From positions 1,776-65,775 of the forward strand of contig JALUUO010000016.1 of the NCBI GenBank assembly GCA_027021335.1: a DNA stretch of 64,000 nt. Direction: 5' to 3'. Of the stretch, positions 5,624 through 64,000 are shown piece after piece; the first letter of the stretch is position 1, and every line of letters starts with the position of its first letter. The DNA comes from Nitrospirota bacterium (lineage in GTDB: Bacteria > Nitrospirota > Thermodesulfovibrionia > SZUA-242). A model generated the notes under the pieces. It saw only the letters and a list, made by a program, of their open reading frames with translations, had not been told where the DNA came from and did no database searches. Position numbers and translations under genes: made by a program.

Positions 5624-5673
5624 AGCCTTTTTGGACCTCCTTGTTTTTCGGTTACATATTCCAACTTCTTAGG

Positions 5674-6735
5674 TTATTCCTTCACGTACTGGAAAACCTG
5701 TATTCTTTGGTTAAATGAATCGGATACATATATGCGGTCGTTACTGTCAATTAAAATGCCTGCAGGTAAATAGAACTCGCCCGGTTTACGGCCTGGAGTT
5801 CCAAAATAAAGCAGAGCATGCCCTTTGGGGTTGAATATCTGAATATTGTTGAATTCTGCATCAACCACATATATGTGGTTGTCACTGTCCACAGCTATGC
5901 CTCTTGGCTTGGAAAACGCTCCGGGGCCGTCGCCTGCTATACCGAAACTACTTAGAAAACCGCCGTCATTACCAAAAATCTGAACTCGGAAGTTCATAGA
6001 GTCTGTAACATACAGGTTTCCTTTAGTATCCAGACATATATTTGTAGGGTAATTAAATTCACCAGGCTTCTCTCCACGTTGACCTAAGTCAAATAACAGC
6101 TTTCCATTAGTACGGTTATAAACACGTATTTTATGCGCCATGGTATCAACAACATAAAGTTTTTCAAGCAGGCTGTCTACGACCAGACCGGTAGGCCTCA
6201 TGAATTCACCAATTGTTGTTTCCAGCAATCCATCTCGGTTAAATACATAAACCTTCTTTGCCACAGAGTCTGATACATATATTTTCCCATCCTCGGCCAC
6301 ATCTACGTCGATTGGGGAAAGGAAAACCATATTATCTTTTTTGGCAGGGATCTGACGGTATTTACCGTCCGGCAGATGAAATATATGTACTAACCTGCCT
6401 CCTGTGTCAACAATAAGAAGATTATCTTTTTTATCCAAGGCTAACCCGTATGGACGGATAAGCAAAGGCATATTTTTACCTAAAAACAGTTCTTTAACCC
6501 GATTTAAAAAGCCTGTGCTTTTAGATATATCCCTTGGAAAGTTTATCTCTCTTTCAAAAACTATCCTTGCCTTTTGTGGTGGCGGTGGCCATGTGATGGC
6601 CTGACTGTTTTTTTCTTTTTGCTGGAGTTGAGTTGTTTCAGAACATCCTGCAAAAAAAGCGCTTACGAGTATTAACATGCAGAAGATCTTTATTGCCGGA
6701 AAAAACGAAAGCCTGGCTGTTTTTGAAATTAACAT
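5674..6735 (-). CDS. NHL-repeat (six-bladed beta-propeller) lipoprotein
   Basis: Repeated NHL-type motifs: LYVTDSMNFRVQIF, IYVVDAEFNNIQIFNPKG and IYVSDSFNQRIQVF. The lipobox-like segment is AFFAGCSE. The ORF track extends the ORF to 6843, overlapping the upstream gene, so the start is taken at the internal Met (MLISK...) about 6735. Confidence 0.7.
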   Translation of the reverse strand: MLISKTARLSFFPAIKIFCMLILVSAFFAGCSETTQLQQKEKNSQAITWPPPPQKARIVFEREINFPRDISKSTGFLNRVKELFLGKNMPLLIRPYGLALDKKDNLLIVDTGGRLVHIFHLPDGKYRQIPAKKDNMVFLSPIDVDVAEDGKIYVSDSVAKKVYVFNRDGLLETTIGEFMRPTGLVVDSLLEKLYVVDTMAHKIRVYNRTNGKLLFDLGQRGEKPGEFNYPTNICLDTKGNLYVTDSMNFRVQIFGNDGGFLSSFGIAGDGPGAFSKPRGIAVDSDNHIYVVDAEFNNIQIFNPKGHALLYFGTPGRKPGEFYLPAGILIDSNDRIYVSDSFNQRIQVFQYVKE

Positions 6736-6745
6736 CAATTGTGTT

Positions 6746-8716
6746 TTACCTCCTGCTTCCAAAGAGCCTTCGAGCTCTGAGGTAGATGCGCTCACGTTTT
6801 TCTTTTCCAATGGTTGTTTCCTGGTTTCGATTAAGGTTTTCATAGGTTAAGGTTATATCCAAAGTTCTGTAGCGCCAACGTAAATTAGTACGGAAGTTGA
6901 ATGAAACCTGTTTTTCACCCACAAGTTCCTGGTTGCGGTACTGTGTTTCAATATCACACTTTGCTCTGTATGGAAGGAATAAAAACAACTTTGCGGAAAC
7001 TGTACGGTCGATTGAATCCTCAATATACTCGAATGTGGATGTTTCAGAGTAGCTGGCGTTTAGATTTAAAACAGGGTTGAAATATCGTAAATTTTTTAAT
7101 CTGAAAATGAGGACTTCGGAGTATTTTGTGGTTTTATATGGATTTCTAACAGACTTATGAATAGTTTTTTCTGCTCTGGTTGTTGAATTTTTCCACTTTA
7201 TTTCAGTGCCGAATGACTTGTCTCTTATATCTTCAAGCCTGCCGATATCGTTTCCGCCTTTTAGCGATTGATCAGAACTGCCCGCATAGTAAAATACCCT
7301 CCAAGCCCTTTTTATATCCAGTTGTCCCCCATAAGTTTGAGTTCGCGTTTCGAATTCGATTGGAGGAGTAGGTTCAAAGTCGTAGCTTATATAAACTGTC
7401 TTACCTAACAGAAAATCTCCATATGCCGGTAAGAGTCTTATTTTGGTAAGTGTTCCGGATTTTTCCAGTCTGTAGTGAAGCCCTTCTTCAATAGGAAGTC
7501 CGGTTACTGGATCGGTGATCTCAAGGCTGTCTTTATCCTCTATTTTAATTGTCGCCTCATCTACAAGATCCCGTTTTAGAAGAATTACATCATCGCCCTC
7601 CGGGTTTTCTCCAAAAAAATGTTCTTCTCTTGAAATGTGGCTTTTGTCTTCAGAAAAGTTTTCATCTGTGTTTTCTATGAAAGTACGGTAGTTGAGAGTC
7701 AGCCTGCCAAAAGAAAGGCGTTTACGGTAATTGAAACGTAATTCTGCAGAAAGTGTATCTTTTTTGCCTGAGTTTAATGTGTAATTTTCTCCGTTTAGTT
7801 CGACACCTGTACTAAGGCTTTCATAAAGTTGGTGTTTCAGGCCGGCGCGGTACCGGTGTTGTTTTGTCACTTTGCCTACCAGCCTGGAATCCTCATAGTC
7901 GTAACGATAGTAGGAATCAAGGTTTTTTGTATGTCTAATATAGATGTTTTCTCCTACTGTAATATCTCTGTATGGAATTGTGCCTGTCTGGTCTCGCCAG
8001 CGAAACAGGCTTGTCAATGCATGCTGCTCTTTAGAACCGAAGTGGTAAGTGTTTGAGGCATTGACCAGATCTGTCTGTAAATCCAGATGTGCCACAGCTT
8101 GGGACCTTCTTTCGTTTTCATACCTTAAGGTACTTGTCCCTAGCATGCCTTCGTTACGAATGCTCAGGTATGCTCTGTTAAGTTTGTCATTGGTTTTGTC
8201 CTGTCCCTCTCCAACAGAGCTCAGCGTGTCATAACCAAGGTCTGTAGGAAACAATTTATGCCGGTAATGAAGAGCAACCCCTTTTTGGGTGGTAGTGAGA
8301 CGTTGGCTTTCGAAAAAACTGCTGTTTGTATCCTGAGTGTTTCTGTTTGCAAGCAGGGTCATTGATATGGGATGAGACTTTAAAATAAGCATTGATAGGT
8401 TGTAATCAGTGTACTTGTCTCTTAACTCCTGCTGAAACTGCATATTGGATGTTTCAGACTCCTGCTTGAAAATAAACTTCGTGTCGGCTTTGAATTCGAG
8501 AAGGCGTGGGTGATAGACGTAGCCATCCACGCCCAATCCCAGTTCTTCAAATAATGCTTCGTCCAGTTCTTTAATAGGCATGTTCGTCCGCAAATTTTCG
8601 CGGTAATCATTTTCCCGCTCAGCTCCAAGTCCGATAAAACCTCCTAGTCTATTAAAACTGACTGAAGTGATAGGGGTAGTCTGGTTTTGGGCCTGTAATA
8701 AAGGAACCTGTAACAT
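6746..8716 (-). CDS. Hypothetical beta-rich protein, possibly an outer-membrane beta-barrel/porin-like component of the cytochrome cluster
   Basis: 656-aa ORF rich in Y/R/N/T/S with alternating-residue segments typical of beta-barrels. In-frame upstream translation (…KRFKIAIITCFYII-MLQVPLLQA↓QNQ) reads like a signal peptide, but I found no canonical start codon upstream. Confidence 0.5.
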   Translation of the reverse strand: MLQVPLLQAQNQTTPITSVSFNRLGGFIGLGAERENDYRENLRTNMPIKELDEALFEELGLGVDGYVYHPRLLEFKADTKFIFKQESETSNMQFQQELRDKYTDYNLSMLILKSHPISMTLLANRNTQDTNSSFFESQRLTTTQKGVALHYRHKLFPTDLGYDTLSSVGEGQDKTNDKLNRAYLSIRNEGMLGTSTLRYENERRSQAVAHLDLQTDLVNASNTYHFGSKEQHALTSLFRWRDQTGTIPYRDITVGENIYIRHTKNLDSYYRYDYEDSRLVGKVTKQHRYRAGLKHQLYESLSTGVELNGENYTLNSGKKDTLSAELRFNYRKRLSFGRLTLNYRTFIENTDENFSEDKSHISREEHFFGENPEGDDVILLKRDLVDEATIKIEDKDSLEITDPVTGLPIEEGLHYRLEKSGTLTKIRLLPAYGDFLLGKTVYISYDFEPTPPIEFETRTQTYGGQLDIKRAWRVFYYAGSSDQSLKGGNDIGRLEDIRDKSFGTEIKWKNSTTRAEKTIHKSVRNPYKTTKYSEVLIFRLKNLRYFNPVLNLNASYSETSTFEYIEDSIDRTVSAKLFLFLPYRAKCDIETQYRNQELVGEKQVSFNFRTNLRWRYRTLDITLTYENLNRNQETTIGKEKRERIYLRARRLFGSRR

Positions 8717-11955: not shown

Positions 11956-13359
11956 TCAACGATTTTTCACAGCTTTTTCCCTGTTATACTTTCTTGGAAA
12001 GTGACATGCTGGTGCGCATCCGCCGCCGTTGTCATCTATCTTGAAGTTAAGTGGAAACTGCCATTTACCGAATTTTGTGATTTCCCTGATATGCTTTGGC
12101 CCTTTAGATCCATGGATATCATGACATACAACACATCTTCGTCCCTTTTTGGGGTCTTTCTTAACATGAACGTAATGGAGATTGGTTGTTCCGTTTCTAA
12201 AACCGGTGCTCTCGGATGTCTCCTTTTCTTGAACGAGTTCCTCATCATGGCAGCCGAAACATAGGCTATACTTTTCCGGCGCAAACTTGGTGTAAAACGT
12301 GGATGGAAACGCTCTGCGTAACATTCTCCATTCGTTTGAGCCATGAGGATTGTGGCAGGCGGCACAATCACCATCCATCAAAATCGGACCATGAAGTTGC
12401 GGGCGCTCTTTAAGCCATCTTTTCATGTTTATTAGTCTGCCTTTGTCGGTTTTTATTGCACGGTTATGACACTTCAGGCAGAGGTCCATAGTCTCCTCGG
12501 CTTTGAGCTGCTTTGGGAAATCTGATGCGTGTGGATCATGGCAGTTTACGCAGCTTCCCTCGGCCTGGATGGCTCCGTGTGGGGTCTTTACCTGTGTTAT
12601 ATGTTCTTCTTTATCCGAATGGCAGCCATAGCATAGCTCTGGTGGTGATAGAAGGAGTTGGTATTTATTTTCGGTGCCGTGTGGACTATGACATCCGGTG
12701 CACCCAACCATCTCAATGGCTGCGTGGACATACTTCTTGGTTGTAATTGCCTCTTCTTTATCGACATGGCACATAAGACAGACATCTTTGCCTTCAGCAG
12801 GCAGCCGGAAAGGATAGGGGGACTCGTGTGGATCGTGACATATTGTGCACTCTCCTGCTGCCACAGGAGCATGAACATATTTGTGTGTAGTTTTATCATC
12901 CTCATGACAGTTAAAGCAAAGCTTGCTGACCGGAGAGTCTAAAAGTTGATATGGGTTGGGTGATTGGTGAGGACTGTGACACATGGTACAGTCTCCGGAT
13001 GCCACCGGTACATGAACCTCTTTTTGAGTGTTTTTCGGATCATGACACATGTAGCACAAGACGTCACCGGTATCGATAACTTTAAATTTATTGTCTTTTG
13101 TAAGTTCATGACATACCGTGCAGTCCCCCATGGCAAAGGCGGCGTGAACATAGCCGTCTGGTGGAGGGGTGGCAAGATCTTTGTGACATTTAAAGCAGGT
13201 TGCAGGGTTTGAAGCATCAAGTCCTGCATGGCCGGCTTCAGCTGAAAAAGCAGCTTGTGGACTAAAGAGGAAAAGCCGGGAAATAAGTATGCCGGCAAAG
13301 ATAATTAAAGTTTTTTTCAAAAAGTGGTTATTGTTTAGATAATATTTTGGATACAGCAC
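11956..13359 (-). CDS. Multiheme c-type cytochrome (14 CxxCH plus one CxxxCH)
   Basis: 467-aa ORF starting at GTG. The likely real start is TTG at about 13321, giving MKKTLIIFAGILISRLFLFSPQAAFSA. Motifs: CFKCH, CTVCH, CYMCH, CTMCH, CFNCH, CTICH, CLMCH, CTGCH, CYGCH, CVNCH, CLKCH, CAACH, CFGCH, CVVCH and CAPACH. Confidence 0.8.
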   Translation of the reverse strand: MLYPKYYLNNNHFLKKTLIIFAGILISRLFLFSPQAAFSAEAGHAGLDASNPATCFKCHKDLATPPPDGYVHAAFAMGDCTVCHELTKDNKFKVIDTGDVLCYMCHDPKNTQKEVHVPVASGDCTMCHSPHQSPNPYQLLDSPVSKLCFNCHEDDKTTHKYVHAPVAAGECTICHDPHESPYPFRLPAEGKDVCLMCHVDKEEAITTKKYVHAAIEMVGCTGCHSPHGTENKYQLLLSPPELCYGCHSDKEEHITQVKTPHGAIQAEGSCVNCHDPHASDFPKQLKAEETMDLCLKCHNRAIKTDKGRLINMKRWLKERPQLHGPILMDGDCAACHNPHGSNEWRMLRRAFPSTFYTKFAPEKYSLCFGCHDEELVQEKETSESTGFRNGTTNLHYVHVKKDPKKGRRCVVCHDIHGSKGPKHIREITKFGKWQFPLNFKIDDNGGGCAPACHFPRKYNREKAVKNR

Positions 13360-13702
13360 TCCTGACCTCGTTTACCTGAAAAGGTTTATTAATAAAAGTA
13401 GTGACTCCGGCTCTTTTCGCTTCTTCTTTATCTAGCAGCGAATCGTATGCTGTCATCATTATAATTTTTGTGCTTGGTTGTAGTTCCATGGTTTTTTTCG
13501 CCACTTCTATGCCGTCGCAATCGGGCATGACAAAGTCGGTTATGATTACATCAAAATGTTTCTGTTTTATTTTTTCTATGGCTTCGGTTCCGTCCGAGGC
13601 CGAGACAACGTTGAATTTATCTTTGCCCATGGACTCTTGAATGGACCACCTCACAAGTTTTTCATCATCCACAATGAGTAAATTCATTTTATCTCTCATC
13701 AT
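13328..13702 (-). CDS. Single-domain response regulator (CheY-like receiver)
   Basis: LLIVDDEKLVRWSI...DVIITDFVMPDCDGIEV...KIIMMTAYDS, with the receiver-domain Asp residues present. Confidence 0.8.
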   Translation of the reverse strand: MMRDKMNLLIVDDEKLVRWSIQESMGKDKFNVVSASDGTEAIEKIKQKHFDVIITDFVMPDCDGIEVAKKTMELQPSTKIIMMTAYDSLLDKEEAKRAGVTTFINKPFQVNEVRSAVSKILSKQ

Positions 13703-13791
13703 GGCCTTGTTTATATGACTTTAGAGGGGTATCCATGTTTAGTTATATGCAATATCAATGCCACATGTTTTGCCCCTCCGTTTTTACCCGC

Positions 13792-15162
13792 TCAGAGAAG
13801 GTAGTATTTTTTCATGCGATATCTAAGGGCGTCTCTGCCCATGCTGAGCAGCTTTGCAGCATGGACCTGATTGCCATGTGCCGCTGCGAGAGCTTGTTGA
13901 ATAAGCTCTTTTTCGACCTCTTCAAGTGAAACGCCTTCAGAGGGAAGGCTGACGGTAGAGCTTGCCGCGCTTAACGCCTTTTCAGGTTGAGTGATTTCGA
14001 TAGGCAGGTGCTCAGGCAGAATAACCTCTTCGTTTTCTAGGATGATTGCACGCTCTATCACGTTTTTCAGTTCACGCACATTTCCGGGCCAGCGATAGCG
14101 TAACATCATTTCTTCAGCTTTTTGAGAGATTCCTTGAACTTTCTTTTTGAAATCCCTGTTAAAAACATTTATGAAATGTTGAATCAAAAGCGGGATATCC
14201 TCTTTACGCTTACGCAGTGGTGGCAGGAATATTGGAAATACCTTCAGACGATAATATAGATCTTCCCGAAAAGTGCCTTTTGCAGAGGCTTCTTTTAAAT
14301 CTTCGTTGGTTGCGGCTATAATTCTGGCATTCACCACGGTCTCCTTTATACCGCCCAGGCGTTTGAATGATTTGCTTTCGATCACTCTAAGAAGTTTTGC
14401 CTGTGTACTCATAGGCATGGCTCCAATCTCATCAAGTAAGATTGTTCCGCTGTCAGCCAGTTCAAAAAACCCTTTTTTCATGGCCTTTGCATCTGTGTAG
14501 GCGCCTTTTTCGTGGCCGAAGAGTTCACTCTCGATAAGGGTTTCTGGAAGAGAAGTGCAATTAATTTCCAGGTAAGGGTTTTCTGCTCTCTTGCTCTGGT
14601 AGTGAATCGCCTTGGCGATCACATCCTTTCCCGTCCCGCTTTCTCCTTGCAGAAGCACTGTTGTTGCATCACTCTTGGCTATTTTTTCAACCATTTCGAA
14701 TACATTTTTCATGGCCTCAGTCTGCCCTACGATGTTTTGCATTCCGTAAAGGCTTTTCTGCTGATTCTTAAAGACATGGACTTCCTTTTTTAGGCTTACA
14801 GTTTCGAGAGCCTTGGAGATAGTTATCTTCAATTTCTCAAAATTAAAAGGTTTTTCGATGAAATCATATGCTCCAAGCTTCATGGCTTTTACCGATGTAT
14901 TGACGTCTCCGTACGCAGTCATCATTATAACCAGCGAATCTTCACGCAGTTTCTTTACCTTTTCCAGGATTTCTATTCCATCGGCTCCTGGAAGTTTGAT
15001 ATCTTGAAGAATAAGATCAGGACGTTCCTGTTCTATGATTTCCATGGCTTCCTCTCCGCTGTTTGCGGTCAGAACTTCGTAGTCTTCCTTCTGCAGGTTT
15101 TCTTTAAGAGACCAGCAGATTAATTTTTCATCGTCCACTACCAGGATGGTTGCTTTAGACAT
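13792..15162 (-). CDS. Sigma-54-dependent transcriptional response regulator (NtrC/AtoC family: receiver, AAA+ sigma-54 activation and Fis-type HTH domains)
   Basis: ILVVDDEKLICWSL...; Walker A GESGTGKDVIAKAIH; GAYTDA motif; C-terminal HTH AAHGNQVHAAKLLSMGRDALRYRMKKY. Confidence 0.85.
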   Translation of the reverse strand: MSKATILVVDDEKLICWSLKENLQKEDYEVLTANSGEEAMEIIEQERPDLILQDIKLPGADGIEILEKVKKLREDSLVIMMTAYGDVNTSVKAMKLGAYDFIEKPFNFEKLKITISKALETVSLKKEVHVFKNQQKSLYGMQNIVGQTEAMKNVFEMVEKIAKSDATTVLLQGESGTGKDVIAKAIHYQSKRAENPYLEINCTSLPETLIESELFGHEKGAYTDAKAMKKGFFELADSGTILLDEIGAMPMSTQAKLLRVIESKSFKRLGGIKETVVNARIIAATNEDLKEASAKGTFREDLYYRLKVFPIFLPPLRKRKEDIPLLIQHFINVFNRDFKKKVQGISQKAEEMMLRYRWPGNVRELKNVIERAIILENEEVILPEHLPIEITQPEKALSAASSTVSLPSEGVSLEEVEKELIQQALAAAHGNQVHAAKLLSMGRDALRYRMKKYYLL

Positions 15163-15165
15163 TTC

Positions 15166-15528
15166 TTAACTATGCTCCTTTGTATATCTGGCAATATACT
15201 CCGCTAGGAGTTTCCGGCAGTGCTCATCACACTTTGTAAACCGGATACCTTTGCCAAAGACGGATTTTCCCCCTTTTTCAGCTTCTCCGGACCAGACTAC
15301 TTGCCCGGATATCCGCAACGGTTTTATTCCTCCAGGAGGGAGTGAAAATTCAAGTTGTATCTCGGTGCCTATTCCCATAGGAATGTCTGTTTTTATAAAA
15401 ATTCCCCCCTCTCCTATATTAACCGCTTCCACCTCATATACTTCCTTTCTTTCTTGCTGTCGTACCCAGTATGTTACAATAATCGACAGCGGTACACGCA
15501 GTGATAACCTTTTTTCCCTAAAGCTCAT
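15166..15528 (-). CDS. PilZ-domain protein (c-di-GMP-binding type)
   Basis: RLSLRVPL...(RxxxR) and ...VNIGEGGIFIKTD (DxSxGG-like). The start is taken at the internal MSFREK to avoid overlap with the upstream kinase. Confidence 0.55.
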   Translation of the reverse strand: MSFREKRLSLRVPLSIIVTYWVRQQERKEVYEVEAVNIGEGGIFIKTDIPMGIGTEIQLEFSLPPGGIKPLRISGQVVWSGEAEKGGKSVFGKGIRFTKCDEHCRKLLAEYIARYTKEHS

Positions 15529-15541
15529 ATGTCTAATCTTG

Positions 15542-17035
15542 TCACTTTGTCTTTTTGGCTGGAAGCAGAACTGTAAAACATGTTCCCTCCCCAATACGGC
15601 TGTTTACTTCTATCCTTCCGTTGTGTTGCTGGACAATCTTCTGGCTGATGGAGAGTCCCAGGCCAGTTCCGGTATGGCGTGTTGTGAAGAAGGGGGTAAA
15701 AATTCTGGACATGTCTTGAGGATATATTCCTTTGCCGGAATCTTTGACCCATATCTCTACAAAGCGTTCTTTGTCTGAGGCCTTCCAGCCTTTCGAAAAT
15801 ATTCTTAAAACTCCACCGTTGGGCATGGCCTGAATTCCGTTGAGCCCAAGGTTTACCAGTACTTGCTGAATCTGTTTCTCGTCTATTTCGACCTTTGGAA
15901 TGGTTTCGTCAAGTTCTGTAACCACCTCTACTCCCTTCTGTGCTGCTCGTTCTTGGATCAGAAACACCACTTGGCGGATCACATCGTTGATGTTGTGTTC
16001 AGCAAGAGCTGGTTTCGCGGTTTTTGCATAGCTTAATAGATCCTTGATGTTTTGATCTATCCGGTCGATCTGTTTCAAAATCTCTTCAAATATTTCGCGC
16101 CTGGGATCATTTTCAGGCAGATCTCCCATCAGGATTTGCATCGCTCCGCTAATACCGGCGATCGGGTTTTTAATTTCATGGGCGATACCGGCTGAAAGTT
16201 CACCCAATGTCGCAAGTCTGTCTGCGCGCTGCATTCGTTGTTCATGAAGTTTCTTTAAATCCTTCTGAGCCGTTTCCAGTTTTGAGATCATTGAGTTGAA
16301 GTTTCGGCCCAACTCTCCGAACTCTACTGTTTCATCCGGTTTGACTCTGGCCGTCAGATCTCCTTTTTCAGCTTTGCGCATAGTGGTTATCAGGCTTTTT
16401 ATAGGGCGGTTAACCAAGTATGACAACAAAAACACAATCGAGATGACTAGTGCAAAAAGAGTGACCAAAACAGAGATGATCATGAATCTTCGAACAGTAG
16501 AGATGCGTTCGTGAAACTTTTCCATGGAGACTTCAACTTCCAAAACCCCATTGATTTGATTAAGTACGGAACCGTGGCAACGAAAACATGGCGGTTGATT
16601 TCTGATAGGCTTGATGATATAGAAAACCGGCTGCTCAAAATTTTTCTGTTCAAATATAGTGTTGAAACTCTGCCGGTGAAAGGTTTCCAGCTCATCTGAG
16701 TTTACTTTCCTTCCTTTTTCTTCAGGAAGGCTGGAGAGCAGGATAGTTCCGTCTTTTGAAAAAATCCTAACCTTCTCAAAATCCGGAAGGGTTCCCACGG
16801 CTTCAATTATATTTCTAACCTCATTGCTCCATCCGTTCAACATGAAGGTTTTAAGGGTTGTCTCGACAGTTTCAGCAATATCCATCAGCCTTTCTTTCGA
16901 AACATCCATGAGTTGATTGTACTGGATACGAAGATGGAGATATGAAGAGACACTGATGGCAAGTGTCAGAATCAGGGTGAGAAAAACTATGAACCTGACT
17001 TTAAGGCTTCGATTTAGTTGTTTAAATGTTTCCAT
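15542..17035 (-). CDS. Sensor histidine kinase (TM, periplasmic domain, TM, HAMP, HisKA, HATPase) with a CxxCH heme-c binding motif in the periplasmic sensor domain
   Basis: H-box AHEIKNPIAGI; G-boxes GTGLGLSIS; periplasmic segment ...QPPCFRCHGSVLNQ... between two hydrophobic segments. Confidence 0.8.
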   Translation of the reverse strand: METFKQLNRSLKVRFIVFLTLILTLAISVSSYLHLRIQYNQLMDVSKERLMDIAETVETTLKTFMLNGWSNEVRNIIEAVGTLPDFEKVRIFSKDGTILLSSLPEEKGRKVNSDELETFHRQSFNTIFEQKNFEQPVFYIIKPIRNQPPCFRCHGSVLNQINGVLEVEVSMEKFHERISTVRRFMIISVLVTLFALVISIVFLLSYLVNRPIKSLITTMRKAEKGDLTARVKPDETVEFGELGRNFNSMISKLETAQKDLKKLHEQRMQRADRLATLGELSAGIAHEIKNPIAGISGAMQILMGDLPENDPRREIFEEILKQIDRIDQNIKDLLSYAKTAKPALAEHNINDVIRQVVFLIQERAAQKGVEVVTELDETIPKVEIDEKQIQQVLVNLGLNGIQAMPNGGVLRIFSKGWKASDKERFVEIWVKDSGKGIYPQDMSRIFTPFFTTRHTGTGLGLSISQKIVQQHNGRIEVNSRIGEGTCFTVLLPAKKTK

Positions 17036-56651: not shown

Positions 56652-57194
56652 CTATTTTCCGGTTACTCCGCCGGATACTATGAATGTCATTACCCTGCCG
56701 CTTTCGGCGTCAAGCGGCGTCACCTTGTCTTTCGGCACCAAAATCAAGTTGCCTGCAAAGTTGTAGGATTGCGGCAGGTAGACCGCCACACGGTCGGCAT
56801 GTCCCCACTCTGCCATCGACTCCCTTGTGACAAAACCTGCAACCTTAATGCAGCCGTCTCCTGTTAATGTTACCAGCACGGGCTTATCAAAACTTTTTTT
56901 GTCGCCCACAAAGGCGCTCACAAGATCTTTTATAGAGGAGTACAGGAGCTTGATAAGAGGAAGTCGATTAAATATTTTATCCAGTAATCCCAGCAGCCGG
57001 CGTGTAAGTATGTTGGATGCCAAAAATCCTATTACCGTGATTACTGCGATCGTTACAAGGAAACCTGCGCCTGGAACAGGCAAGTCGATGAAGTTGTCAA
57101 TTTTAAGAAATGCAATATAGAAAACATAAACAGTAACAGCTAGAGGCACAAGAAACAGTAGTCCTTCAAAAAAATATTTTGTAAGTCTCTTCAC
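56652..57194 (-). CDS. DUF502-family membrane protein
   Basis: 180 aa with two N-terminal TM helices, resembling the DUF502 family. Confidence 0.6.
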   Translation of the reverse strand: MKRLTKYFFEGLLFLVPLAVTVYVFYIAFLKIDNFIDLPVPGAGFLVTIAVITVIGFLASNILTRRLLGLLDKIFNRLPLIKLLYSSIKDLVSAFVGDKKSFDKPVLVTLTGDGCIKVAGFVTRESMAEWGHADRVAVYLPQSYNFAGNLILVPKDKVTPLDAESGRVMTFIVSGGVTGK

Positions 57195-57481
57195 GTTTCA
57201 ATCTCCTTATTTAAAAGATCAAGACAATTATACAAATTAAAATTATAGTCTTGCTTTACGAATATAACACCTGCCTTTGTGCAAGTTAAAAAGCACCGGA
57301 CCGTTATGTGCTAAAACATGATACTTTTTTCTTGACATACATGGTACAGGATGCTAGTTTGATACTATCCATGATACGGTAAAACCGGCAATCACGGTGC
57401 CTGCTGTTTTATGAGTTTTTTATGAATTGTTATTAATTACAGGACCGGCTGTTGTGCCTGCCCCGTTTAAAGGAGAAGAAC

Positions 57482-58009
57482 ATGGAACCACCTGTTGTTG
57501 AGTATCGTTTTGTAAACTCATTCCATAAAATTTTTTTATTGTTAGTCTTAATCTTGTTGTTTAGTTATCCTGTTTTGTTTCCTGTGTATGTTTCATCTGG
57601 AGAGCCGCAGCAACAAACTAAGAAAGAAAAAGAAGAAGCTATATTAATTCTTCAAGTAGGGATAAGTTTAATTAAGCAAGAAATTAAGAGGGATCAGTCG
57701 ATTGTTTCTGCCGGTATCAGGGTTTCAAGGGACATAAGGAGAGTTAGGGAAACTTTAAGAAACGGTATAGCTAAAAAAGAAAAATTAATAGTTGACCTTA
57801 GATCATCGTTAGCCTCCAGTCTGCCTGCTGAAATTGATGCTTTGCAGGAGAATCTTGACCAGGAAAAAGAAATCTCGGGTGGTTTCATAACTTCCTCCAG
57901 AGTAAGAAGGCTGACTACGGAGACTATTAAACAATCTATCCCTGTAAAGCAGGATGTTTTGGCTGCTTTTGAACAGTTATTGTCAGAGTTAAAGCAGGAT
58001 TCAACTTAA
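57482..58009 (+). CDS. Hypothetical secreted/membrane coiled-coil protein
   Basis: AAGGAG RBS before ATG (MEPPVVEYRF...), a TM/signal segment and charged coiled-coil-like repeats. Confidence 0.45.
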   Translation: MEPPVVEYRFVNSFHKIFLLLVLILLFSYPVLFPVYVSSGEPQQQTKKEKEEAILILQVGISLIKQEIKRDQSIVSAGIRVSRDIRRVRETLRNGIAKKEKLIVDLRSSLASSLPAEIDALQENLDQEKEISGGFITSSRVRRLTTETIKQSIPVKQDVLAAFEQLLSELKQDST

Positions 58010-58206
58010 GTTTTTTCACAGTCATCCCATAAGCTCGTAAAGCAGGCCTAAAACTCCTTAGTCCCTAGCGAATTTCCTTAATTTGTCTCGCAGTTTTACT
58101 TGACATGTGTAGTTTAGAGTGATAGTTTTGTTGTACAAATACATGATTCAGAGTGGCGGCTATTTAGTAGTTGGTGCGGTCTTTCTTTGCCTGGAGGTTT
58201 GTTTCT

Positions 58207-58464
58207 ATGCAGAAGAAAGTTATTCTCCTGGTAGAGGATAATGCAGATGATGAAGATCTTACTTTACGTGCGCTTAAGAAAAGTAATATTCTGAATGAAG
58301 TTGTGATTCTTACATCATCAGATCAGGGTAAGGATGTTGTTAAAAGTTATGATTTAGGCTGTAACAGCTATATACGCAAACCTGTGGGTTTTACCCAATT
58401 TCACGAAGCGGTTCGGCATCTGGGTTTGTACCGGCTCCTGCTGAACATTGCTCCATCCAGGTAG
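58207..58464 (+). CDS. Single-domain response regulator receiver
   Basis: [26 protein letters not shown]... Confidence 0.65.
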
Positions 58465-58476
58465 GGGGGCTTAATA

Positions 58477-59763
58477 ATGGGTAGACCAATTCGTGTTTTA
58501 ACTGTTGAAGATTCTGAAGACGACGCTCTGTTGCTTGTGCGTGAATTGCGGCGTGGCGGTTATGAGCCGTCTTTTAAACGCGTAGAGACAGGTGAAACGT
58601 TTTCTTCGGCCCTGGAAAATGAAACATGGGATGTCATCATTTCTGATTATTCGATGCCTGGATTCAGCTCGCCTGCTGCACTGGAACTCTTGAAAAAAAG
58701 CGGGCTTGATCTGCCGTTTATTATTGTTTCCGGAAAGATAGGTGAGGATACTGCTGTTGCAGCCATGAAGGCAGGGGCGCATGACTATATTATGAAGGAC
58801 AATATGGCACGGCTTATCCCTGTGGTCGACCGGGAGCTGCGCGAGGCGGAAGTGCGCAGGCAGAGAAAGCGTGCGGAAGAGCAGTTTTTACAATCACAAA
58901 AGATGGAGTCTATCGGCAGGCTGGCCGGAGGTATCGCCCATGATTTCAATAACCTGTTAACGAGCATTCTGGGTTATGGTGACTTGGCGCTCAGGCAGTC
59001 CAGCAAGAATAGTCCTCTTTATAGGGATATTAAAGAAATGATAAAAGCGGGTGAGAGGGCTGCAGTATTGACACGCCAGCTTCTGGCTTTCAGCCGTAAG
59101 CAGATTCTTGAACCAAATGTATTGCAGTTAAACAGTATTGTATCCGGCATAAACAAAATGTTCAGCCGTTTGATCGGCAAGGATATTGAGCTTGTTACGA
59201 TACTTGATCCTAAGTTGGGACGTATTAAAGCTGACTCCGGACAGATTGAGCAGGTAATTATGAACCTTGTCATCAATGCACGCGACGCCATGCCTCGGGG
59301 CGGAAAGCTCACTATCCAGACAAGTAACGTCTGCCTGGATGAAACATCTGTTCTTACGCATGATGAGGATATGCCGCCGGGCCGTTACGTAATGATGAGT
59401 GTTTCCGATACGGGAGTTGGTATGAACCATAAAGTTATGGCTCATATCTTCGAGCCTTTTTTTACCACAAAGGAACAGGGTAAGGGAACGGGGCTGGGAC
59501 TTTCGACTGTTTACGGAATTATAAAGCAGAGCGGAGGCTTTGTTTCTGTTGAAAGTATGCCGGGTATGGGAACAACATTTAATGTATACCTGCCGGACGT
59601 GGAAAAAGCGGCTCCGGTTGTTATGCATGAAGAATATCGAACCAACTCTTCTCACGGCAGCGAGACTGTTCTGGTGGTGGAGAATGAGGAGAGTGTTCGG
59701 GAATTGGTCTGTAGAGTTTTAAAGATGCAGGGCTATAATGTTCAACAGAAGTTTAAGAGATAA
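58477..59763 (+). CDS. Hybrid histidine kinase (N-terminal REC, HisKA, HATPase). The C-terminal second receiver domain is cut off after about 30 residues, so the gene is possibly truncated
   Basis: IRVLTVEDSEDDALLL...DVIISDYSMPGFS; GGIAHDFNNLLTSI; GVGMN; GTGLGLSTV. It ends ...VLVVENEESVRELVCRVLKMQGYNVQQKFKR*. Confidence 0.8.
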   Translation: MGRPIRVLTVEDSEDDALLLVRELRRGGYEPSFKRVETGETFSSALENETWDVIISDYSMPGFSSPAALELLKKSGLDLPFIIVSGKIGEDTAVAAMKAGAHDYIMKDNMARLIPVVDRELREAEVRRQRKRAEEQFLQSQKMESIGRLAGGIAHDFNNLLTSILGYGDLALRQSSKNSPLYRDIKEMIKAGERAAVLTRQLLAFSRKQILEPNVLQLNSIVSGINKMFSRLIGKDIELVTILDPKLGRIKADSGQIEQVIMNLVINARDAMPRGGKLTIQTSNVCLDETSVLTHDEDMPPGRYVMMSVSDTGVGMNHKVMAHIFEPFFTTKEQGKGTGLGLSTVYGIIKQSGGFVSVESMPGMGTTFNVYLPDVEKAAPVVMHEEYRTNSSHGSETVLVVENEESVRELVCRVLKMQGYNVQQKFKR

Positions 59764-59830
59764 AGTCTCTTTCTGTCTGTAACCCCGCAGGAGACTCTAT
59801 ATCTATTAATAACTGTCGCCTGATGAATTC

Positions 59831-59859
59831 TTGACATTAAAAGTTTTATTATATTATTT
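59831..59859 (+). promoter_or_regulatory. Candidate sigma-70 promoter for the TonB-dependent receptor (TTGACA -35 plus an AT-rich -10)
   Basis: cTTGACAttaaaagttttatTATATTATtt. The exact -10 position is ambiguous. Confidence 0.35.
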
Positions 59860-59932
59860 CACACAAAAGCAGGTACCCACACCTGCAGGTCTGCCCTTAC
59901 TGCGAACTCTGCCTAGGAAAAGTAAAAACTTT

Positions 59933-61933
59933 ATGACACGACATTCAAAAATAGATCTGGTTATTTGCCGAGAGCTTCTCGTTCGGCCTGGGGGCTTTCG
60001 GCGAACAGGCCCAACAGTCAGAAAAGACGTTTCGTTTCTCATCTGTCTGGCCGTATTATTGTTTTTGTTTACCACGCCTGCGGTTGCTATCGATGGTCTT
60101 TCGGAAGAAGAACTGACAACACTGTCCATGTTCTATGATGAGAAAGACCTTGTGGTCACGCCCACCAGGGCGCCGAAGCCCATCTCGCAGGTTGCCGAAA
60201 ACATGACCATCATCACTGCCAAGGAAATAGAGCAGATGAACGCCCACACCGTGGCCGAAGTGCTTAACCGCGTCACAGGGGTGTTTGTGGATTTTAACGG
60301 CCAGGATTTCGGGAGCGCCTCTATGTTAAAGATTCAGGGTTCTAGCGAACAGCAAGTTCTTGTTCTGCTTGATGGTATACCCTGGAATTATTTTAATTCT
60401 GCTACTGCCGAGACAAACACTGTTCCCATACACGCTGTTGAACGCATAGAGATCATCAAGGGGCCGGCATCCTCGGCCTGGGGTTCATCCCTGGGTGGCG
60501 TAATAAATATCGTAACCAAATCGACAGGCAAGACAAAAAAACCAAAAGGCACTGTGAGCGCCTCGTACGGCGAGCAAAGCTCTATGGAGCAATTCGCTGA
60601 TCTATATGGAAAATCAGGCGCGGTCGGGTATTACCTGTATGCCGGAGGGCAGACGTCAAACGGTCTTAGGGACAATAGATATTTTGATAATTACAGCTTC
60701 TATTCCAAACTGAAAATAAATACAGGCAGCGATTCCGCTGTTACGCTTACAGCCGGCTACAGCGAGCCGCACCTGAAGTGGGGGGATTTCCCGGACAACG
60801 ATCTTACCTCGAGCGGCATCCTTCGCATATTCTTGACAACGGCATCTTTTGAGGCCGGCCTTACTGAGGGGCTTGATCTTTATGTGTCTCTTTACAGGTT
60901 CGAACAGAAATTTGTACAGATGAACGATGTGCTCGGCATGGGCATGTACGGCAATGCAGGGGATCTTTTCATGGACAATATCTATGATGAGGAGACCACA
61001 GGCGTACGTAGCCGGCTGGTATGGAGAAAGGGAAGGCAGACCCTGGTTGTGGGCGTAGATTACAGGTACGGAAAACTGGACTATACATCCAATAACGGGC
61101 CCTGGCTTCAACAGGGAGGTGGCCTGCCGGCCGCTTCCACGGCAACACCGGACCTGGAGGAATGGGCTGTATATGCAAACGATTCCATAGCCGTTGGTAA
61201 ATGGTCGGTTACTCCGGGAATCCGCCACGACCACAACAACATAAGCGGCCCTTTTACAAGCCCGAGCCTCGGCATAACATACAGGCTTTCGCCTGACACC
61301 ATCCTTCGCACCTCGGCAGCCCGCGGATTCACATCACCTTCACTTGCCCAAACATCCACAGGAGGGTTATGGCTTAATCCAAACCCTGATCTTGACCCTG
61401 AAATGGTCTGGTCTTACCAGGCCGGGGTCGAATCCGTGCTGGGCAAGCATCTCAAGGCAAAGGCCACGGCCTTCCAGCACGACCAGAAAGACAAACTGAC
61501 GGTCGATACAGACATTACGGTAAACGGCGGGAAGGTCAGGCGCCGGGGCGGCGAGGTAGAGGCTGAAACAGTGCCGGTTCTGAATATATCGTTCAAGGGC
61601 GGCTTTGCCTACGTAGACTCAAAGGACTTCACAACGTCAGAAACATCAAACAGATATACCTGGAACCTGGGGCTTGCCTACGACGATCTCCGATCGATCA
61701 GGGCAGAGATCTTCGGCCATTACGTCTGGTGGGACAAGAAAGCATCATTCGAGGCCGAATACAGCGATTTTCTCTGGGATCTAAATATTATTAAAAGACT
61801 AACAACCTTCTCCAGCATAAAAACCGAACTGTTTTTTACGGTCCGTAATATTCTAAATGGCGAGCAATACAGCGCTGCTTATGCCAAAAATCCAGAGAGA
61901 TGGATCGAGAGCGGCATCAGGGCCAGGTTCTGA
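59933..61933 (+). CDS. TonB-dependent outer-membrane receptor
   Basis: Signal peptide ...VSFLICLAVLLFLFTTPAVAIDG. Plug domain (...DLVVTPTRAPKPISQVAENMTIITAKEIEQ...), a 22-strand barrel region and a C-terminal aromatic (…GIRARF). The ORF-track start at 59831 lies inside the promoter, so ATG 59933 is preferred. Confidence 0.8.
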   Translation: MTRHSKIDLVICRELLVRPGGFRRTGPTVRKDVSFLICLAVLLFLFTTPAVAIDGLSEEELTTLSMFYDEKDLVVTPTRAPKPISQVAENMTIITAKEIEQMNAHTVAEVLNRVTGVFVDFNGQDFGSASMLKIQGSSEQQVLVLLDGIPWNYFNSATAETNTVPIHAVERIEIIKGPASSAWGSSLGGVINIVTKSTGKTKKPKGTVSASYGEQSSMEQFADLYGKSGAVGYYLYAGGQTSNGLRDNRYFDNYSFYSKLKINTGSDSAVTLTAGYSEPHLKWGDFPDNDLTSSGILRIFLTTASFEAGLTEGLDLYVSLYRFEQKFVQMNDVLGMGMYGNAGDLFMDNIYDEETTGVRSRLVWRKGRQTLVVGVDYRYGKLDYTSNNGPWLQQGGGLPAASTATPDLEEWAVYANDSIAVGKWSVTPGIRHDHNNISGPFTSPSLGITYRLSPDTILRTSAARGFTSPSLAQTSTGGLWLNPNPDLDPEMVWSYQAGVESVLGKHLKAKATAFQHDQKDKLTVDTDITVNGGKVRRRGGEVEAETVPVLNISFKGGFAYVDSKDFTTSETSNRYTWNLGLAYDDLRSIRAEIFGHYVWWDKKASFEAEYSDFLWDLNIIKRLTTFSSIKTELFFTVRNILNGEQYSAAYAKNPERWIESGIRARF

Positions 61934-62088
61934 AATCATGAGCCAACCTTGTGATTTTGCAGAACCTTTATGATATTTGTTTGTCGAGCTTACTAAAGTC
62001 TTCAATGTTAGTGACGATATGTAAGGTAAGACCCAAGCGGGCACCCTGTCTTTCGACAGGCTGATACTTTTATTTGAAGGAGGAAAAA

Positions 62089-62202
62089 GTGGAAGGAAAA
62101 AAGATTATCGTGCTTGACACCGGTATTGATATGGATGAGATAAGCTTGAGCTTCGGCTGCTGTTCTGGAGCAGTGTCGCCGTTAAAACCAGGCGACGATT
62201 AG
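62089..62202 (+). CDS. Small 37-aa peptide, candidate RiPP precursor: V/MEGKKIIVLDTGIDMDEISLSFGCCSGAVSPLKPGDD
   Basis: GTG start 5 nt after a strong AAGGAGG RBS (62077-62083). The ORF is 114 nt and is absent from the ORF track because it is under 60 aa. A perfect terminator hairpin follows it, then a radical SAM/SPASM gene. Confidence 0.55.
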   Translation: MEGKKIIVLDTGIDMDEISLSFGCCSGAVSPLKPGDD

Positions 62203-62209
62203 AAAACCA

Positions 62210-62240
62210 GCGGGGAGCTTTACGCTCCCCGCGTATTTCT
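62210..62240 (+). terminator. Rho-independent terminator/attenuator between the precursor peptide and the rSAM maturase
   Basis: GCGGGGAGC-TTTAC-GCTCCCCGC gives a perfect 9-bp GC-rich stem with a 5-nt loop, followed by GTATTTCT. Confidence 0.65.
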
Positions 62241-62259
62241 CTGAATTACGTTAAATTTT

Positions 62260-63561
62260 ATGCATTTATCCCGCTATTTAAAAATCTACCCATACGAAGA
62301 AAAGCCAGGCTACCTGCTTCTTTTCTCCACTAAAAAAACCTCCAAGGTTCTCATCACTGAAGAAACATACCGGGCCGCCAAGGCCGGTACGTTATCAGAT
62401 TCCGACCAGAAGCTTCTAATAAAGCTCGGCATGCTTGTGCCGGACAGAGATGTTGAAAAACAGGAAATGCTCGGTTTTGTGGATGAGCTTAACCGCAGAA
62501 ACACCAGCCTCAACATCACGGTTGTTTTAAACCTCGACTGCAACTTCGCCTGCCTCTATTGCTACGAGGGCGGCATAAAAGGCAAGCTTTACATGTCGGA
62601 TAAAACCGCTGATTCAGTTATAGACTTTATAAAAGCCAGGCTTACAAACGGTAAAAAATTTCTTAACATCGACTTCTACGGTGGTGAGCCGCTTCTTGCT
62701 GTTGATACTATTAAGAGGATAACCGGGACGCTGAAAAAACAGGCTGAAACCATTGGAGCATCCTTCAGCTTTACACTTGTGACAAACGGTTCCCTGCTTA
62801 CTCGCAATAGAGTTGAGGAGCTGGTTCCACTTGGCTTAAAAGGGGTAAAGATTACCCTGGACGGCCCGCCGGAAAACCATAACCGGTACAGGCCATTTAA
62901 GAGCGGTGCTGGAAGTTTTGACGTAATTATCCAAAATATAAAGGATTCTTGCGATATTCTTAAAATAGGTGTGGGCGGCAACTACGACAGAAATAATTAC
63001 GAACAATTCACCAACCTGCTTGATCTTCTTGAGGCCGAAGGTCTCACGCCTGACCGGCTTGCCAGTGTGAAGTTCGATCCGGTAATGAAACACCCTGAAG
63101 GGGAAGAAGCTCCAAGCGACTACCGTGACGGCTGTATGTCGGTTAACGAACTTTGGATTACAGAGGCAGAAAAACTGCTGCGCGGTGCAATAATCAAAAA
63201 AGGCTACAATACTTCTTCGCAGAGGCCATCGCCATGCCAAATAGAGTTTGGTGAGATGCATGTGATCAACTTTGACGGCAGATTGTATAAATGCCCGGCC
63301 TTTATCGGCAAGGAAGGATTTGATCTGGGCGATATAAAAACAGGCATGGCCGGCGACATAAACAGCGTATACAGGCCCGGCATATGGAAAAACGAGGAGA
63401 AATGTTTTGACTGTGAATACCTGCCCTTATGCTTTGGCGGCTGCCGATACATGGCTTATCTTCAAAATGGAAGCCTGGACAAACTCGACTGTAAGAAGGA
63501 GTATCTCGACCGCTCCCTGGAGATCTCGATAAAACAGGATATTTTAAACAGTCCAGGTTGA
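62260..63561 (+). CDS. Radical SAM / SPASM-domain peptide-modifying enzyme (anSME-like maturase) with a putative N-terminal peptide-recognition domain
   Basis: CX3CX2C radical SAM motif CNFACLYC. GGEPLL motif. C-terminal SPASM Cys cluster C...CPAF...CFDCEYLPLCFGGC. An N-terminal extension of about 85 aa precedes the rSAM core. Confidence 0.8.
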   Translation: MHLSRYLKIYPYEEKPGYLLLFSTKKTSKVLITEETYRAAKAGTLSDSDQKLLIKLGMLVPDRDVEKQEMLGFVDELNRRNTSLNITVVLNLDCNFACLYCYEGGIKGKLYMSDKTADSVIDFIKARLTNGKKFLNIDFYGGEPLLAVDTIKRITGTLKKQAETIGASFSFTLVTNGSLLTRNRVEELVPLGLKGVKITLDGPPENHNRYRPFKSGAGSFDVIIQNIKDSCDILKIGVGGNYDRNNYEQFTNLLDLLEAEGLTPDRLASVKFDPVMKHPEGEEAPSDYRDGCMSVNELWITEAEKLLRGAIIKKGYNTSSQRPSPCQIEFGEMHVINFDGRLYKCPAFIGKEGFDLGDIKTGMAGDINSVYRPGIWKNEEKCFDCEYLPLCFGGCRYMAYLQNGSLDKLDCKKEYLDRSLEISIKQDILNSPG

Positions 63562-63616
63562 TCTTTTTTCCTGCCTTTGAACTGTTTTTTCCACTTAAAG
63601 AAAAATATATTTATGT

Positions 63617-64000
63617 TTACGACCTCTCTACTGGAAGGAATATTTTTACTCCCCTGGGAAGTTTTTTAAAATCCTTGATTTTATCTCCTGTTTTTAATGT
63701 TTTATTCGGAAACAGGTAAACCGTTTTATGGTGGTTGTACCTAGTCCCTGCAACTTTACCGGGAGGCTTTCTTTTTGTAATCCTGTAGGGACCGTGATAT
63801 CCGACTATTATCCTGGTATGCATGGGCAGTTCATCCCAGTCGGAGATACGCCTGCCACTTTTTATTTTGCCATCCGGGAAAAAGTAGAACGTGGTCTTTT
63901 TTTTATACTCGGCACCGGCAAAAGTCCAGGCTGTCAGTCCATTTGTTATTGTCTTAACAGGTCCTTCGGATAGCTTAATGTTTGACTTACGTTCCTGGTT
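63617..64000 (-). CDS. 3' part of a hypothetical protein whose gene continues past the window end
   Basis: The open minus-strand frame runs from the window end to a stop at 63617 (…ITKRKPPGKVAGTRYNHHKTVYLFPNKTLKTGDKIKDFKKLPRGVKIFLPVERS*). It contains the 68-aa ORF-track entry. Confidence 0.4.
   Translation of the reverse strand, partial: NQERKSNIKLSEGPVKTITNGLTAWTFAGAEYKKKTTFYFFPDGKIKSGRRISDWDELPMHTRIIVGYHGPYRITKRKPPGKVAGTRYNHHKTVYLFPNKTLKTGDKIKDFKKLPRGVKIFLPVERS

Follow-up and report, generated by a model that had tools for sequence, protein, structure and literature searches.

We analyzed a locus on the plus strand of a 64,000-nt stretch of DNA from a Nitrospirota bacterium (assembly GCA_027021335.1, contig JALUUO010000016.1, positions 1,776 to 65,775). 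This whole stretch is termed the window, and coordinates refer to it unless a comparison locus is named. The locus contains, in order, a gene for a TonB-dependent outer-membrane receptor, a short open reading frame (ORF) of 37 codons, a GC-rich hairpin, and a gene for a radical S-adenosylmethionine (SAM) enzyme with a SPASM domain. An earlier note, made from the sequence alone, had proposed that the short ORF and the enzyme gene encode the precursor and maturase of an unannotated ribosomally synthesized and post-translationally modified peptide (RiPP), of a kind it did not recognize. The pairing of precursor and maturase is borne out here, yet the system is not new: it is the 'geopeptide' family of TIGRFAMs/NCBIfam, represented by one model for the maturase (TIGR04280) and one for the peptide (TIGR04229). 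The locus is a previously unannotated member of this curated, experimentally uncharacterized RiPP family.

Precursor, hairpin and maturase in the window

The precursor gene (62089–62202) starts with GTG and ends with TAG (62200–62202). An AAGGAGG Shine–Dalgarno sequence, read from the sequence at 62077–62083, precedes it with a 5-nt spacer of five A's. The encoded 37-aa peptide, MEGKKIIVLDTGIDMDEISLSFGCCSGAVSPLKPGDD, can be divided into a leader, MEGKKIIVLDTGIDMDEISLSFG, which carries the family motif I-I-V-L-D-x-G-I-D, and a core, CCSGAVSPLKPGDD. A mechanical ORF list places the start instead at TTG 62074, a codon that overlaps the ribosome-binding site (RBS) and has no RBS of its own. Homologous peptides begin at the position equivalent to the GTG, and so the 37-aa reading, also that of the earlier note, is correct.

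TIGR04229 was the sole NCBIfam model matched by the peptide, at 18 bits (cut-off 30; E = 0.002). This 22-position model also missed the other precursors examined: all ten from clear TIGR04280 loci, the window's included, fell under the cut-off. Of the nine non-window precursors, seven gave no match even at E = 10, and two scored 11–13 bits. These data indicate that the model is too narrow, rather than that the window peptide is foreign to the family. The narrowness also accounts for precursor genes being uncalled or 'hypothetical' in public annotation. A collection of 15 billion proteins does not contain the window peptide, implying that its gene was never called, and a homologue from Electrothrix is deposited as 'hypothetical protein'. 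The exact maturase, by comparison, is present in public collections, and its relatives are already named 'geopeptide radical SAM maturase' by NCBI. The term 'unannotated' therefore suits the peptide but not the enzyme, whose family has a curated name. That the peptide went unrecognized is explained by a family that exists only as database models, the one for the peptide being narrow.

The hairpin begins 7 bases past the precursor stop codon. Its stem-loop, GCGGGGAGC-TTTAC-GCTCCCCGC (62210–62232), has nine pairs, eight of them G-C, and a 5-nt loop. The minimum free energy was −23.6 kcal/mol, versus −11.0 ± 2.7 kcal/mol for 200 shuffled sequences, none of which was as good (z = −4.6). The tail that follows, GTATTTCTCT, extends the terminator-like element to 62242 and has 5 T in 9 nt, making it moderately T-rich with no clean T-run. 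The perfect 9-bp stem described previously is thus present, but the end given for it (62240) takes in the tail. A search of Rfam with positions 57000–64000 gave only sub-threshold matches to small RNAs over the hairpin, so this is not a known RNA family. Judging from its sequence, the hairpin is a putative attenuator or 3′-end stabilizer, and would act through partial termination, 3′-end protection, or both.

Precursor and maturase share a reading frame and are separated by 57 nt that hold two stop codons (TAG 62200 and TGA 62242). The 20 nt that lead up to the maturase start codon (TCTGAATTACGTTAAATTTT) contain no purine-rich RBS. Upstream, a sigma-70 promoter scan detected no plus-strand site in 61933–62089; the genes for receptor and precursor may share a transcript. 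Two other candidates in this region were rejected. A sigma-54 promoter pattern, GGGCAC-N6-TTTC (62038–62056), was matched once in a scan of 73 loci, which is the background rate, and a structured 5′ leader between receptor and precursor had a z-score of 0.16.

The maturase gene (62260–63561, ATG start) encodes 433 aa. TIGR04280 matched residues 1–428 at 557.2 bits (cut-off 400; E = 2.6e-167), whereas Pfam yielded only generic Radical_SAM (56.5 bits) and Fer4_12 matches. A CX3CX2C motif (C94/C98/C101; 62539–62562) marks the radical SAM cluster. The SPASM model TIGR04085 matched residues 326–408 at 53.7 bits (cut-off 27), in a region of seven cysteines (63235–63492) arranged as C326-X13-G-X4-C345, C382-X2-C385-X5-C391-X3-C395 and C411. 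All ten of these cysteines were invariant in alignments of 44 and of 19 homologues. An eighth candidate, C292, is substituted in about a quarter of homologues, which leaves auxiliary cluster I with three assured Cys ligands. Profile searches of the enzyme, suggested in the earlier note, thus placed both the whole protein and its SPASM region above cut-off.

Models of other radical SAM enzymes scored far lower. Among them were CefB (186 bits, cut-off 600), PapB (153.5, cut-off 340), the SCIFF maturase (TIGR03974; 121.7, cut-off 425) and QhpD (101.5, cut-off 453). We take PapB, the SCIFF maturase and QhpD to be the characterized thioether synthases among these matches, and the window maturase lies outside all three equivalogs. 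The anaerobic sulfatase maturase model (TIGR03942) gave 72.9 bits against a cut-off of 349, in agreement with the earlier note, which had not read the enzyme as a sulfatase maturase.

An AlphaFold2 model based on 44 homologues (pLDDT 82, pTM 0.81) placed a beta-beta-beta-alpha-alpha domain at residues ∼1–80 (62260–62499), ahead of the radical SAM barrel and the SPASM region. Within it, residues 7–80 form three strands and two to three helices, with a pLDDT of ∼90. The best folds in the Protein Data Bank (PDB), as ranked by Foldseek, were three chains of CteB (5WHY/5WGG; E = 4e-19 to 4e-18, TM 0.66), matched over the full length. These alignments spanned 448–471 columns, and hence include the N-terminal RiPP recognition element (RRE) of CteB. 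CteB was also the best PDB match by sequence (E = 6e-24, identity about 20%). Sulfatase maturase, ChlB, SuiB and SkfB followed among the folds. The N-terminal domain gave no sequence match to Pfam PqqD, nor, by domain profile, to any solved RRE in the PDB. By its modeled fold, the domain is a putative winged-helix, RRE-like element, like the recognition-type extension that had been proposed.

Conservation of the locus

The comparison set comprised 18 genome loci and 80 metagenome loci, which with the window made 99; the maturases of the comparison loci were 39–64% identical to that of the window. Of the 99 loci, 80 have a homologous small ORF adjoining the maturase gene. When counts were restricted to the 87 loci (window included) with >250 nt of upstream sequence, the number was 75. 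Several loci scored as lacking a precursor have variants outside the search pattern used.

The 80 loci gave 96 unique peptides, in which Cys-Cys is the only invariant feature. Each of these cysteines is encoded by TG[C/T], the third-position split being 54:42 and 48:48. Such variation, confined to the third position, argues for selection on the protein and not on the RNA. The preceding residue is frequently Gly or Ala. Of the small ORF and Gly-Cys-Cys motif whose conservation had been put forward as a check, the ORF and the two cysteines are kept. The tail after Cys-Cys is mostly 8–10 residues long and carries G at +2 (43/96), P or A at +6 (49/96), and K or R at +8 (58/96). The family core can be written CC-x-G-x-x-x-P/A-hydrophobic-K/R. 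The window sequence CCSGAVSPLK conforms to this consensus and then adds a C-terminal PGDD.

Leaders were of three types: acidic, with the pattern I/V-V-L-D-x-G-x-D (the window's type); basic, MKK-x-IVLKKGK-x-VK-x-VA, in Electrothrix and relatives; and a Lys-rich repeat. The last of these, which differs from the two main types, was seen in three loci (L069, L070 and L098), where precursors upstream of the maturase have leaders of the form KKKATKKKATKKK... before the Cys-Cys core. As read from these sequences, our working definition of a precursor is an I/V-V-L-D-x-G-x-D or basic leader, an invariant Cys-Cys, and a tail of mostly 8–10 residues that often ends in K/R.

Several loci have more than one precursor gene. 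Tandem copies number nine in L006, three in L002, and two each in L027, L028 and L057, while L005 and L052 have a second precursor 3′ of the maturase. The L006 array (positions 4309–5741 of that locus) consists of nine identical copies that repeat every 166 bp, and a separate hairpin follows each of them. Copies in the L002 array (5201–5616) differ by one residue, those of L027 and L028 are identical, and the two of L057 diverge. Tandem arrays point to a high demand for the peptide. One Desulfurivibrionaceae contig (L013) carries two full precursor–maturase sets, at 788–2883 and 5836–7281, one with a basic and one with an acidic leader, which suggests paralogous systems within one genome. Among the maturases, a 723-aa variant (P0061; L025, 2300–4471) has a C-terminal extension of ∼290 residues without a Pfam domain.

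The hairpin is likewise shared, as proposed for the window from its position between precursor and maturase. Of 17 genome loci, 15 have a G+C-rich stem-loop after the precursor stop codon, usually with a clean T-run and often with a cUUCGg loop. Stem sequences vary from locus to locus, yet pairing is preserved. A GC-rich stem of at least six pairs was found after the precursor stop in 74 of 99 cases, versus 86 of 495 random segments from the same loci and 19 of 96 segments after the maturase stop. Requiring a T-rich tail in addition gave 41/99, 11/495 and 1/96, respectively. This enrichment after the precursor stop marks the hairpin as a feature of the family.

Synteny was scored in the 31 loci whose sequence reaches 3.5 kb or more on both sides of the maturase. 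The maturase has a homologous TonB-dependent receptor gene as its neighbor in 30 of these, so the link noticed in the window is not accidental. A PF04392 periplasmic binding protein is encoded in 26, and the sensor part of a hybrid histidine kinase with sCache and HAMP domains was seen in 15. Clustering of ORFs from all 99 loci gave four recurrent families, namely maturase (94), receptor (72), binding protein (46) and kinase/receiver (46); the next largest had 7. No exporter, peptidase, ABC permease or ATPase recurred near the maturase in this clustering. The binding protein carries a signal peptide; because no ABC permease or ATPase partner recurs with it, we call it orphan. Gene order and orientation differ among loci, and co-conservation therefore argues for a shared function over mere inheritance. 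None of the receptors, binding proteins and kinases of geopeptide loci reached an NCBIfam cut-off for a specific name.

Taken together, precursor, maturase, hairpin and receptor are conserved over many loci of Thermodesulfobacteriota and Nitrospirota, and in the window the module consists of receptor, precursor and maturase. The family is large, with at least 548 relatives in one metagenome scan, spread over Desulfobacterales, Desulfobulbaceae (including cable bacteria), Geobacteraceae and Nitrospirota. The window itself is one further member and brings no new principle. What the survey adds is a description of the precursor family, along with its association with a TonB-dependent receptor and, in most loci, with an orphan binding protein that is usually accompanied by a sensor kinase. 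We found no paper on geopeptide as a RiPP or on TIGR04280 (text matches appear to be to the 'gageopeptides' of Bacillus), and no report of a link between geopeptide, receptor, binding protein and kinase.

Proposed function and alternatives

We consider it likely, with a probability of roughly 0.8, that the locus is a geopeptide-type RiPP module whose product carries thioether bonds and is taken back up through the receptor. The geopeptide system was defined in silico (TIGR04229 plus TIGR04280, of type 'hypoth_equivalog'), and the window resembles it in a maturase over the cut-off, in a peptide gene that directly precedes it in the same orientation, and in two traits shared with family precursors: the leader motif I-I-V-L-D-x-G-I-D and the invariant Cys-Cys. 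It differs from its relatives in the PGDD added to the core and in lacking the pair of binding protein and sensor kinase.

In the mechanism we envisage, the I-I-V-L-D-x-G-I-D segment of the leader would dock, as a beta-strand, onto the RRE-like winged helix at the N-terminus of the maturase. The invariant Cys-Cys would thereby come to the active site, where one Cys thiolate could bind the open iron of auxiliary cluster I, as in CteB, in which the fourth site of this cluster binds a substrate cysteine. The 5′-deoxyadenosyl radical would then take a hydrogen from a carbon in the 8–10-residue tail, giving one or two thioethers, each with a loss of 2 Da. The hairpin is predicted to end or stabilize most transcripts past the precursor. 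Combined with a strong RBS for the precursor versus none for the maturase, this would yield much precursor and little enzyme. The matured peptide would exit the cell and then cross the outer membrane inward via the adjacent receptor. In most relatives, the orphan PF04392 protein and the hybrid histidine kinase might then sense the peptide; the window lacks this pair, and its neighboring kinase is truncated.

Thioether cross-links from Cys-Cys to the tail are the most likely modification by analogy, because the known characterized matches and the nearest fold are thioether synthases. CteB, which matures SCIFF (thermocellin), shares with the window enzyme the architecture of RRE-like, radical SAM and SPASM domains, and in both enzymes no more than three invariant Cys serve auxiliary cluster I. 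The precursors differ, however: those of SCIFF have six Cys in 45 residues, compared with a single Cys-Cys pair in the window. SCIFF loci also belong to Clostridia and have no TonB receptor, which in the window is adjacent. PapB (freyrasin) and QhpD, which form thioethers from Cys to Asp/Glu, are to our knowledge the highest-scoring characterized NCBIfam enzymes, yet they stay below their cut-offs. The window core ends in Asp-Asp, a possible acceptor of this kind, but acidic residues after Cys-Cys are not conserved in the family.

Several points weigh against this explanation. The modification chemistry is proposed by analogy. Judged from the peptide sequences, there is no conserved acceptor residue; with Cys-Cys alone invariant, a modification confined to the cysteines would fit equally well. 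The window peptide falls short of the TIGR04229 cut-off, and the N-terminal domain of its maturase matched neither PqqD nor other RREs in sequence. The T-tract of the window hairpin is weak, whereas most homologous loci have runs of TTTTTT. We found no co-conserved exporter or leader peptidase that would account for secretion, and the window is without the binding protein and sCache kinase of most relatives.

An alternative with the same genes is that the maturase oxidizes the cysteines themselves, to a thio- or seleno-oxazole as SbtM does (−4 Da per Cys) or, in the manner of the sulfatase maturase, to a thioaldehyde or formylglycine. The product might then offer an S,N-rich metal site and, as a methanobactin-like metallophore, enter through the receptor. 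That Cys-Cys is the only invariant element in 96 peptides, often after Gly or Ala, speaks for such chemistry, as does the fact that anaerobic sulfatase maturase is the second-best group of PDB folds. SbtM, of the selenobiotic system of Geobacter and Desulfobacteria, is a radical SAM/SPASM enzyme from the same lineages that acts on Cys/Sec in a short Gly-rich motif (Gly-Cys/Sec). It makes a thio(seleno)oxazole and no cross-link, however, unlike the chemistry proposed for geopeptide, and the window precursor has no selenocysteine. Moreover, the 25 best NCBIfam matches of the window maturase do not include the SbtM family, which therefore scores below 53.7 bits; the sulfatase maturase model reached 72.9 bits, compared with 101–153 for thioether synthases. 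The loose but real consensus of the tail (G at +2, P/A at +6, K/R at +8) suggests that the tail matters too. As for a metallophore, methanobactin operons encode the RiPP MbnA along with a receptor, MbnT, and a binding protein, MbnE, and the conserved neighborhood of geopeptide loci, in which a RiPP has its own TonB-dependent receptor and periplasmic binding protein, is reminiscent of this. But the likeness is one of analogy and not of homology, methanobactin being matured by MbnBC and not by a radical SAM enzyme, and the geopeptide binding protein is partnered with a kinase, not an ABC importer. On balance, we think this alternative unlikely, albeit the strongest competitor.

Far less probable still is that the peptide is a sacrificial precursor from which a small cofactor is cut around Cys-Cys, as PQQ is from PqqA and mycofactocin from MftA, for use inside the cell, with the receptor serving an unrelated nutrient. 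Multi-copy precursor genes and a hairpin after the precursor do occur in pqq operons as well, and the lack of a conserved exporter would suit an intracellular product. Yet cofactor pathways need several enzymes, and no peptidase, oxidase or tailoring enzyme recurs here; the tail after Cys-Cys is kept in length and pattern; and the presence of the receptor in 30 of 31 loci, among which gene order varies, argues for a function shared with the peptide. We can discount the view that the small ORF is fortuitous or reflects a non-coding RNA element, beside a sulfatase maturase or other non-RiPP radical SAM protein. In its favor one might cite a peptide that is under the TIGR04229 cut-off and was never called as a gene, but it is refuted by amino-acid motifs kept across loci whose maturases share only 42–64% identity, Cys-Cys codons that vary at the third position only, and enrichment of the hairpin after the precursor over random segments. 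No Rfam family lies at the locus, the sulfatase maturase score is far under its cut-off, and no sulfatase gene was found within 10 kb upstream or 2 kb downstream.

A wider role can be imagined for the conserved module of five parts. Receptor, Cys-Cys RiPP, maturase, orphan binding protein and hybrid kinase could together make up a self-contained circuit in anaerobic Gram-negative bacteria, based on an extracellular peptide. After its release, the modified geopeptide would come back across the outer membrane through its dedicated TonB-dependent receptor, and a pair resembling LuxP–LuxQ, in which a binding protein reports to a hybrid histidine kinase, would detect it in the periplasm. The resemblance is again an analogy without homology, both systems having a binding protein (orphan in geopeptide loci) along with a hybrid histidine kinase. 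The peptide could serve as an autoinducer or as a metal-loaded reporter, and the window would hold a reduced version that produces and imports without sensing. We offer this circuit as a tentative idea, one that we would sooner doubt than assume. If true, it would be a signaling architecture not described for RiPPs in didermic bacteria. The receptor link gives this otherwise nameless RiPP a hypothesis that can be tested, on the uptake or sensing of peptides by anaerobes that cycle metals and sulfur.

Neighboring genes in the window

The receptor gene (59933–61933, plus strand) was called on the source contig and encodes 666 aa; in the ORF list it extends upstream to TTG 59831. Its product matched the Pfam families Plug (81.9 bits) and TonB_dep_Rec_b-barrel (132.5 bits), and has a signal peptide and a TonB-box-like sequence, DLVVTPTR. 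It passed no specific NCBIfam model, the best being of BtuB type (137 bits, cut-off 600). The receptors of the window, L005, L012 and L014 gave weak N-terminal matches (48–95 bits) to models of U-motif TonB-dependent receptors (CU, PCPU, PUIUD, FCYXU), in whose names we take U to stand for selenocysteine. The mature window receptor has no Cys, and hence is not of this type.

Just upstream of the receptor, a gene on the same strand (58477–59763) encodes a kinase with REC, HisKA and HATPase domains according to Pfam. Its core is 47–54% identical to the kinases of L026, L005 and L018, but it aligns only to residues 270–566 of the 659-aa L005 kinase, indicating that it lacks the periplasmic sCache/HAMP portion and the greater part of the C-terminal receiver. 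From this alignment, it is probably a remodeled remnant of the sensor kinase of geopeptide loci, and an association with the geopeptide module is possible. The protein ends with about 25 residues of a second receiver domain. Upstream of it, a 97-aa ORF (58171–58464) encodes just the C-terminal half of a receiver. Where these two genes lie, relatives carry an sCache/HAMP hybrid kinase and a PF04392 binding protein, neither of which the window has. The only match to the binding protein in the 64-kb window was at chance level and lay inside the gene of a sigma-54 activator.

Downstream of the maturase, the source contig carries an Amidase_2 gene on the opposite strand. Farther away, the minus strand at 11956–17035 encodes a multihaem cytochrome c with six paired-CXXCH matches and an MtrC/MtrF-like domain, with a HAMP histidine kinase and a sigma-54 activator encoded next to it. 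Such a region fits a metal-respiring organism of Geobacter- or Desulfobacterales-like kind.

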